From a virus (taxonomy: Duplodnaviria > Heunggongvirae > Uroviricota > Caudoviricetes), in IMG/VR virus record IMGVR_UViG_2698536576_000001: a stretch of DNA of 22,860 nt; one strand, written 5' to 3'. Shown here piece after piece: positions 688-775 of this stretch. Each line of letters starts with the position of its first letter. The first letter of the stretch is position 1. The translations under genes were made by a program, and so were the position numbers. Under the pieces are notes generated by a model. The model saw only the letters and a program-made list of their open reading frames with translations. It was not told the DNA's origin and did no database searches.

Positions 688-775
688 GGGGCGGGAGCGT
701 CGCGGAAAAAGGCTAGTTTTTGAAATTTCATTCGTCATCGCCACTACTGTAATAGATTGATATTACAGTATTTTT
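688..775 (+). promoter_or_regulatory. candidate cos region (cosN-like GC-rich segment plus downstream inverted repeat, possible cosB)
   Basis: GGGGCGGGAGCGTCGCGG at 688-705 resembles lambda cosN/left end (GGGCGGCGACCTCGCGG) as recalled. A shared TTCGTCAT motif lies downstream, and a perfect 10-bp inverted repeat TACTGTAATA-N6-TATTACAGTA sits at 745-770. The position immediately upstream of the terminase small subunit fits. Confidence 0.5.

Follow-up and report, generated by a model that had tools for sequence, protein, structure and literature searches.

Where the genome ends of a lambdoid phage lie, and from which point its DNA would be packaged, is the question raised by a short segment located ahead of the small terminase gene in the viral record IMGVR_UViG_2698536576_000001 (IMG/VR; Caudoviricetes). 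The whole stretch of DNA analyzed, referred to here as the window, comprises 22,860 nucleotides of one strand. Its region from approximately 660 to 815 is very likely the cohesive end site (cos), of the lambda type, of a lambdoid prophage belonging to the lineage of phages mEp460, Ayreon, and phi458. This reading follows from the elements found in the region, from their being unique in the window, from the way in which they are conserved and placed in relatives, and from their coincidence with deposited genome ends; it is supported by comparison and not by experiment. The site would represent the genome ends of the lineage, and not necessarily those of an inducible phage in the source strain.

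An earlier interpretation made from the letters alone (the sequence-only reading) had proposed a candidate cos site here, composed of a segment resembling lambda cosN at about 8 of the 12 cohesive-end positions and followed by CGCGG, a perfect 10-bp inverted repeat and an AT-rich tract before the small terminase gene. The bases are as it described. The 12-mer GGGCGGGAGCGT is present at 689–700 with CGCGG following at 701–705, and the 12-mer is identical to the lambda cohesive end GGGCGGCGACCT at 8 of 12 positions, with mismatches at positions 7, 8, 9, and 11. The left half (positions 1–6) agrees with lambda at 6/6, all four differences being located within positions 7–12, and the CG dinucleotides at 687–688 and 701–702 are both invariant in the family alignment. 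It has been reported that bp 7–12 form the half of cosN in which natural variation occurs, while the CG flanking each nick is kept (Feiss et al., 2015; PMC4669245). The confinement of the differences from lambda to bp 7–12, together with the retained CG flanks, agrees with this variation, and the window 12-mer has the features by which a cosN is known, namely a 12-nt sequence resembling that of lambda with tolerated variation in bp 7–12. Salmonella phage Gifsy-1 has been counted among the lambda-like cos phages, differing from lambda at bp 8, 9, and 11 (Feiss et al., 2015; PMC4669245). Its site, when read directly, is GGGTCCT-N23-/GGGCGGCAGCGT/CGCAGG (slashes indicating the nicks), and the window 12-mer is a single base (C7G) from this cohesive end, so that the window overhang corresponds to that of Gifsy-1 with one further change.

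The heptamer GGGTCCT at 660–666 was overlooked by the sequence-only reading, being located outside the segment (688–775) that it had described. It is identical to a 7-bp heptamer found 23 bp before the right end of lambda (J02459), which we take to be lambda cosQ (coordinates 48473–48479). It was found at the spacing seen in the window in 96 of 165 loci, Gifsy-1 among them, and cosQ has been reported to be highly conserved (Feiss et al., 2015; PMC4669245).

The likeness to lambda was assessed against chance by tests that make use of position. The composite pattern GGGTCCT-N20-25-CGGGGCGG-N6-CG was found to occur once in the window, at 660–702, with an expected number of 0.00. An ungapped scan was also performed with the 77-bp core of lambda cos (-32 to +45 about the nick), placed in every register on both strands (~45,600 comparisons). 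The best match obtained was the nick-anchored register, with 41/77 bases identical (z = 5.5), the runner-up having 36. These tests are decisive for a cosN match beyond chance. In addition, window 300–467 is 82% identical to lambda 47922–48090, near the right end of lambda, and this likeness places the cos where synteny predicts it.

The ends of related genome records coincide with the predicted nick. The records of phages cdtI (AB285204) and Tritos (OV696610, linear) both start with GGGCGGGAGCGTCGCGG, at the homologue of base 689. The opening bases of cdtI are GGGCGGGAGCGTCGCGGAAAAAGG, Tritos opens with the same bases, and the Tritos record terminates in ...CTGCCACG, which is the homologue of window 688. 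In these deposited records, the genome ends of cdtI and Tritos already coincide with the exact 12-mer, Tritos being a plaque-forming phage (PMC9928086). The cos of mEp460-type phages, by comparison, seems to be unannotated so far: it is left unmarked in the GenBank records of mEp460, Ayreon, and phi458, and the authors describing Ayreon went no further than to expect a cos somewhere in the ~1 kb preceding the small terminase gene (PMC5764929). Searching the literature for the exact 12-mer brought up nothing but unrelated papers on human and rat.

In the record of mEp460_4F5 (LR595868.1; bases 1–20), the sequence starts on the left side of the predicted nick, 5 bp from it (CCACG/GGGCGG), and its cosN is short by 3 bp with respect to all relatives (GGGCGGGAGCG with three bases missing before CGG), which may have arisen in the assembly, at the physical ends of the genome. 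Two phages with the Stx-phage type of cos, 1720a-02 and Stx2_112808, have a stretch from ACG/ to AAAAAGG that is 2 bp shorter (GGGCGGGCGGCGCGG), with cosQ at 24 bp from the putative nick; the cohesive end of this group may be different in sequence or length. A further record (IMGVR_UViG_2778261579_000007) carries two cos sites 1.4 kb apart, at 1286–1328 with an mEp460-type cosB and small terminase, and at 2691–2733 with a Tritos-type cosB. No intact large terminase open reading frame (ORF) was found between the two, and the record may represent a recombinant or deleted prophage, or a misassembly.

The organization of the site in relatives appears to be modular. A search with the small terminase protein, limited to one genome per species, yielded 66 loci, and in many Enterobacterales among these the same cosQ-cosN module is located either 129 or 186–187 bp upstream of the small terminase start codon. 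Phages Tritos, cdtI, and HannyBb have cosQ, cosN, and the next ~22 bp in common with the window, while cosB and the N-terminus of the small terminase diverge. Within this shared part, the conserved segment (701–722; Table 1) is identical in Tritos and HannyBb and has one difference in cdtI, its GGC..GTTTT bases being invariant across genera; past 722 divergence is complete. Tritos encodes a homologous DUF1441 small terminase, and both Tritos and cdtI possess a perfect core for integration host factor (IHF) at bp 64–76, but neither has the inverted repeat. Such a pattern would be expected if cosN and cosQ work with the large terminase, and if packaging specificity is set by cosB and the N-terminus of the small terminase; the packaging specificity of cdtI and Tritos presumably differs from that of the window. 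Phages mEp460, Ayreon, and phi458 share the cosB type of the window, with the small terminase region 98–100% identical and with the inverted repeat and T tract present; their repeat alleles differ in usually having G-C closing pairs (CCACTGT...ACAGTGG).

A cosB of the lambda family stands between cosN and the small terminase gene and contains repeats for small terminase binding, arranged as R3-I1-R2-R1 or with a single R3. Downstream of cosN in the window, the blocks conserved in the cross-genus alignment are arranged as R3 > I1 < R2 R1 >, an order and orientation equal to that of lambda R3-I1-R2-R1 (PMC9026076). On the basis of this conservation, the three R-like blocks are considered candidate small terminase (TerS) binding sites. 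The R3-like block matches an R-like 11-mer with 1 mismatch, and its distance from the nick may be compared with that of R3 in lambda (bp 50–65) and in N15 (bp 48–60) (Murialdo and Feiss, PMC9026076). The R2-like block has a TG.CGA core that is invariant across genera and matches the 11-mer on the minus strand with 3 mismatches. In the group with 129-bp spacing, the R1-like block abuts the small terminase start codon.

The sequence TATCAATCTATTA between the R3-like and R2-like blocks is the only perfect IHF core in the 22.86-kb window, where ~0.6 would be expected window-wide, or roughly 0.005 per 170 bp. IHF-like cores were surveyed in 79 distinct cos regions covering every DUF1441 cosB type (mEp460, PhiR47, Tritos/cdtI, Stx-phage 1720a-02, Fels-1, and the 129-bp-spacing type). 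In 77 of these the best core (within bp 18–130) was found on the minus strand starting at bp 61–64 from the nick, with 0–2 mismatches, the exceptions being one locus in which the site at bp 63 ranks equal first, and Gifsy-1, whose small terminase is of the Nu1 type. Among 47 variants that were compared, the TAA and TTG of the core never vary, the remainder of TTGAT is at least 90% conserved and the T tract (771–781) is nearly invariant. On the minus strand, this tract reads AAAAATAAAAA (781–771) and is followed by an 8-nt gap, TACTGTAA, and then by the IHF core. Strong IHF sites, attP H' being an example, typically have an A/T-rich stretch located 5' of the core. By position and conservation, 750–762 is thus likely an IHF site, with the T tract predicted to be its A/T element.

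Table 1. Predicted elements of the cos region and the terminase genes located in the window.
Feature	Position	Strand	Sequence or product	Remarks
cosQ-like heptamer	660–666	+	GGGTCCT	22 bp upstream of the predicted top-strand nick; packaging-termination signal in lambda
cosN	687–702		GGGCGGGAGCGT (689–700)	Predicted 12-nt 5' cohesive end
Predicted nick, top strand	688/689	+		Flanked by CG
Predicted nick, bottom strand	700/701	-		Flanked by CG
Conserved segment	701–722	+	CGCGGAAAAAGGCTAGTTTTTG	Between cosN and cosB, at the position of the lambda cosN-proximal I2 segment
R3-like candidate TerS block	731–744	+	TTCGTCATCGCCAC	bp 43–56 from the nick; conserved across genera as TCATCAyCAy
Inverted repeat	745–754 and 761–770		Spacer GATTGA	Inside the R3-R2 spacer
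IHF core, predicted	750–762	-	TATCAATCTATTA (consensus WATCAANNNNTTR)	Proposed I1 equivalent
T tract	771–781		TTTTTATTTTT	A tract 5' of the IHF core on the minus strand; U-run after the hairpin on the plus strand
R2-like candidate TerS block	782–792	-	GTGGTGTCGAT (reverse complement ATCGACACCAC)	Inverted relative to R3 and R1
R1-like candidate TerS block	805–815	+	TTGTTCATCAC	GTTCAyCAyC conserved across genera; R-like 11-mer with 2 mismatches
Small terminase gene	875–1369	+	164 aa, DUF1441	Pfam PF07278, E = 2.7e-41
Large terminase gene	1369–3471	+	700 aa, gpA type	Pfam GpA_ATPase, E = 1.7e-71; GpA_nuclease, E = 6.2e-85

In mEp460, Ayreon, and phi458, the small terminase carries the annotation of terminase small subunit; with its Tritos counterpart, the window protein shares 42% identity, most of the difference falling in the N-terminal region. 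For the large terminase, identity is 24% with lambda gpA (E = 6e-18) and 87% with the corresponding Tritos protein. A single-sequence AlphaFold model of the small terminase (mean pLDDT 66) was too poor for a fold search, and sequence searches of PDB with the small and large terminases gave nothing useful. Further downstream, a long ORF (4941–7160) corresponds to the fusion of a ClpP-like prohead protease and major capsid protein annotated in a related E. coli locus, a head type which has been described for Gifsy-2 and mEp213 (PMC12315714). Within the gpJ-like tail gene (15749–19273) there is an antisense ORF of 562 aa (16583–18271, minus strand), which is probably no true gene but a side effect of codon bias.

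When compared with lambda, the locus shares GGGTCCT upstream of the nick, the junction ACG/GGGCGG....../CGCGG with CG at both nicks, an identical left half of the overhang and a conserved segment after cosN. An IHF-type core is located between the R3-like and inverted R2-like blocks, with a direct R1-like block in addition. The two terminase genes, small and large, follow immediately after the site in the orientation seen in lambda, the large terminase being of the gpA family. It differs from lambda at bp 7, 8, 9, and 11 of the overhang and in the distance from cosQ to the nick (22 bp, as against 23 in lambda). The R-like blocks of the window are TTCGTCATCAC-like and unrelated to the CGTTTCC-type R sites of lambda, the small terminase is of the DUF1441 family and not Nu1, the R1-like block is closer (bp ~117–127 from the nick) and a subgroup-specific hairpin is present over the IHF site. 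Gifsy-1 resembles the window in its cohesive end, one base off, and in the presence of cosQ and the retained CG flanks. However, it has a Nu1-type small terminase and a cosB of the lambda/21 type, and CGCAGG follows its cosN in place of CGCGG.

If the inferred nick positions hold, if IHF and the small terminase bind at the predicted core and R-like blocks, and if the window copy is active, packaging could, by homology with lambda, proceed as follows. The DUF1441 small terminase would bind the cosB repeats (R3-like at 731–744, inverted R2-like at 782–792, and R1-like at 805–815), and host IHF would bind the core at 750–762, bending the DNA between R3 and R2. This bend would position the gpA-type large terminase for staggered nicks in cosN, at 688/689 on the top strand and at 700/701 on the bottom strand, leaving a 12-nt 5' overhang, GGGCGGGAGCGT. 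Packaging would then run rightward through the terminase and head genes and would stop at the next cos, recognized via cosQ (660–666) and cosN.

Several observations weigh against this assignment. The sequence-only reading had suggested a pairwise alignment with the lambda cos region as a check, and the outcome depended on how this was carried out. A gapped local alignment of 629–888 with the lambda cos junction scored 23, against 17.8 ± 2.1 for shuffles and up to 27 for other tiles of the window, and is not significant alone. It was replaced by the register scan and the composite pattern, and the ungapped, nick-anchored alignment is the best in the window. The two-fold symmetry of cosN extends over 8 of 16 bp, compared with 10 of 16 in lambda and likewise 10 in Gifsy-1. 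The R-like 11-mer has 113 matches in the window at ≤3 mismatches and carries little information; being too weak in the window, it leaves the R-like sites to rest on conservation. No similarity between the small terminase and lambda Nu1 was found by BLASTP (E = 20), and hhalign gave a weak match (33% probability, E = 4.6e-4), which is colinear over the whole length. The protein is a DUF1441 member and not a recognizable member of the Nu1 family of small terminases, which have a winged helix-turn-helix domain, a distant relationship being possible. The ends of the cdtI and Tritos records are given as deposited and may have been measured or set by analogy with lambda, and no mention of cos is found in the paper describing Tritos (PMC9928086).

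The remaining such observations concern the activity of the window copy. This copy could be a genuine cos by descent that is no longer working, a relic in a defective prophage that neither makes nor enters virions, although we consider this unlikely. Positions 1–296 of the window hold the terminal portion of an IS3-family element. The N-terminal part of the transposase is encoded there on the minus strand, reaching ~206, and the element, ending at ~296, is inserted within a ybcW-like gene near the 3' end. The same junction of insertion sequence and cos is present in strain EC23HZZ201, after a Qin-like lysis/moron cassette. Leftward of the lysis cassette, the 7 kb displayed for this strain contain only a helix-turn-helix gene and host genes, with no early genes. 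In the R3-like block, moreover, a transition (A740G) is private to the window; the block reads CATCGCCAC in the window and CATCACCAC in the other 46 of the 47 variants. In lambda, a single transition in R3 gives the most severe phenotype (PMC9026076), and A740G might weaken the initiation of packaging if the block is the equivalent of R3. On the other side, no damage is seen in cosQ, cosN, the IHF core or the R2- and R1-like blocks, all of which agree with the corresponding elements of mEp460, Ayreon, and the particle-producing phage phi458. Both terminase genes have full-length reading frames, and many E. coli genomes that lack the insertion sequence carry 297–1400 at 99.8–100% identity. Even in a defective prophage, a cos can serve in trans for a helper phage that has the same specificity. 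The window copy may lie in a defective prophage, where it is possibly inactive, while the region itself is still best read as the cos of the lineage.

The other element highlighted by the sequence-only reading was the inverted repeat. As stated there, its arms TACTGTAATA (745–754) and TATTACAGTA (761–770) are 100% complementary with a 6-nt spacer, and the tract ahead of the small terminase gene is AT-rich, with a GC fraction of 0.22–0.25 over 740–799 vs. 0.82 over 660–699. Of the candidate cos that combined the cosN-like segment with this repeat, the cosN part is upheld by the cosQ upstream, the record ends of relatives and the gpA-type terminase downstream, but the repeat does not stand as a general cos element. 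Across the family, as aligned, only its center, the IHF-like core, is conserved. The outer arms are present only in the mEp460 subgroup: cosB sequences of the PhiR47, Tritos, and 129-bp-spacing types lack them, and they are degraded in the 569R4 phage record; they are probably not needed for packaging. In a comparison of 66 distinct 230-bp cos regions, taken from loci nearly all of which have a 100% identical small terminase, almost all polymorphism downstream of cosN was located in a hypervariable patch of cosB (743–746, 754–755, 765–772, and 781–784). The changes in this patch are mostly A-to-G on the plus strand, and the neighboring bases are nearly invariant.

Besides being located inside cos, the repeat and its T run could also function as an intrinsic (Rho-independent) terminator or insulator in plus-strand RNA, a proposal that we regard as possible but improbable. 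Read-through in the lysogen from the upstream morons (cspI, ynfN, gnsB, and the ybcW-like gene) into the terminase genes would be stopped at this point, while Q-modified RNA polymerase would ignore the terminator in lytic growth. These morons have been found to be strongly expressed in Tritos lysogens (PMC9928086, Table 1). Folding of the RNA is good in both alleles examined. The window RNA at 738–785 (the repeat with an outer CCAC/GUGG helix) folds at -12.6 kcal/mol (z = -4.2) and that of the phi458 allele at -19.4 kcal/mol (z = -4.8); the minus strand of the window, however, folds almost equally well (-11.9 kcal/mol). The phi458 allele, which is the common one, passes a simple rule for a terminator (12 pairs, 4 of them G-C, a loop of 6 and a T tail), whereas the window allele has only 2 G-C pairs in its 10-bp stem and a terminator scan of the window was negative. 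Among the 47 variants, arm pairing is kept in 90.6% of cells when G-U pairs are included, and 3 pairs are changed on both sides. Arm mismatches are mostly G.T (52 cells, vs. 11 for A.C), which favors a hairpin in plus-strand RNA, and the T tract is invariant or nearly so. The variants are close relatives, however, so that the pair counts are not independent, and such excesses also arise without structure. An alternative outer helix (742–747 with 782–787) shows modest covariation, as does the repeat, again among closely related sequences. No equivalent hairpin is present in the Tritos/cdtI or 129-bp-spacing cosB types, and the PhiR47 type has none at the position of the repeat, with only a small terminator-like one at the R1-like block. 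Furthermore, the IHF core together with its A tract accounts for the conservation of the same bases. That the IHF site of cosB in the mEp460 subgroup is overlaid with a plus-strand hairpin and U-run, insulating constitutively expressed morons from the packaging genes, is accordingly offered as a doubtful suggestion. An Rfam scan of 500–1000 gave only sub-threshold snoRNA noise.

It is very improbable that the arms form the site of a dimeric protein, whether a dimer formed by the DNA-binding domain of the small terminase or a repressor, LexA-like or of the phage, linking packaging or late expression to the SOS response. The LexA box is TACTGTATATATATACAGTA, and the arms TACTGTA/TACAGTA equal LexA half-sites. 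The repeat is perfect over 10 bp, and its outermost pair changes on both sides, being T-A in 10 variants and C-G in 7. The spacing, however, is CTG-N16-CAG and not CTG-N10-CAG, and the centers of the arms are 16 bp apart, inside the expected IHF footprint. The arms are also absent in PhiR47_1 and 606R10 (the small terminase of the close relative L022 is 86% identical) and in all more distant relatives, besides their degradation in the 569R4 record. A LexA box as such was considered and rejected, the spacing here being CTGT-N14-ACAG and CTGT-N8-ACAG occurring nowhere in the window.

The view that the likeness to cosN is due to chance, with packaging from some other site or by headful, could appeal to the 8/12 identity of the 12-mer alone and to the gapped alignment, but it is close to refuted by the unique composite pattern, the top-ranked ungapped register, the identical 12-mer at deposited genome ends, its conserved place in Enterobacterales, 129–187 bp ahead of the small terminase gene, and the presence of a large terminase of the gpA type.

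The cos assignment opens no long-standing question, and its only mildly unusual point is the hypervariable, terminator-like hairpin over the IHF site. Should the insulating hairpin be real, one short segment would be at once a packaging element (as DNA, with IHF) and a transcription signal (as RNA), and its hypervariable positions would reflect selection for pairing and not for sequence. The practical value of the site lies in annotation, as it indicates where the genomes of a very common family of E. coli lambdoid prophages are likely to end and in which direction they would be packaged. The phages with a DUF1441 small terminase appear to combine the cosQ-cosN module of lambda with a cosB of their own, in which an IHF-like core, conserved in position, is found in every cosB type examined.

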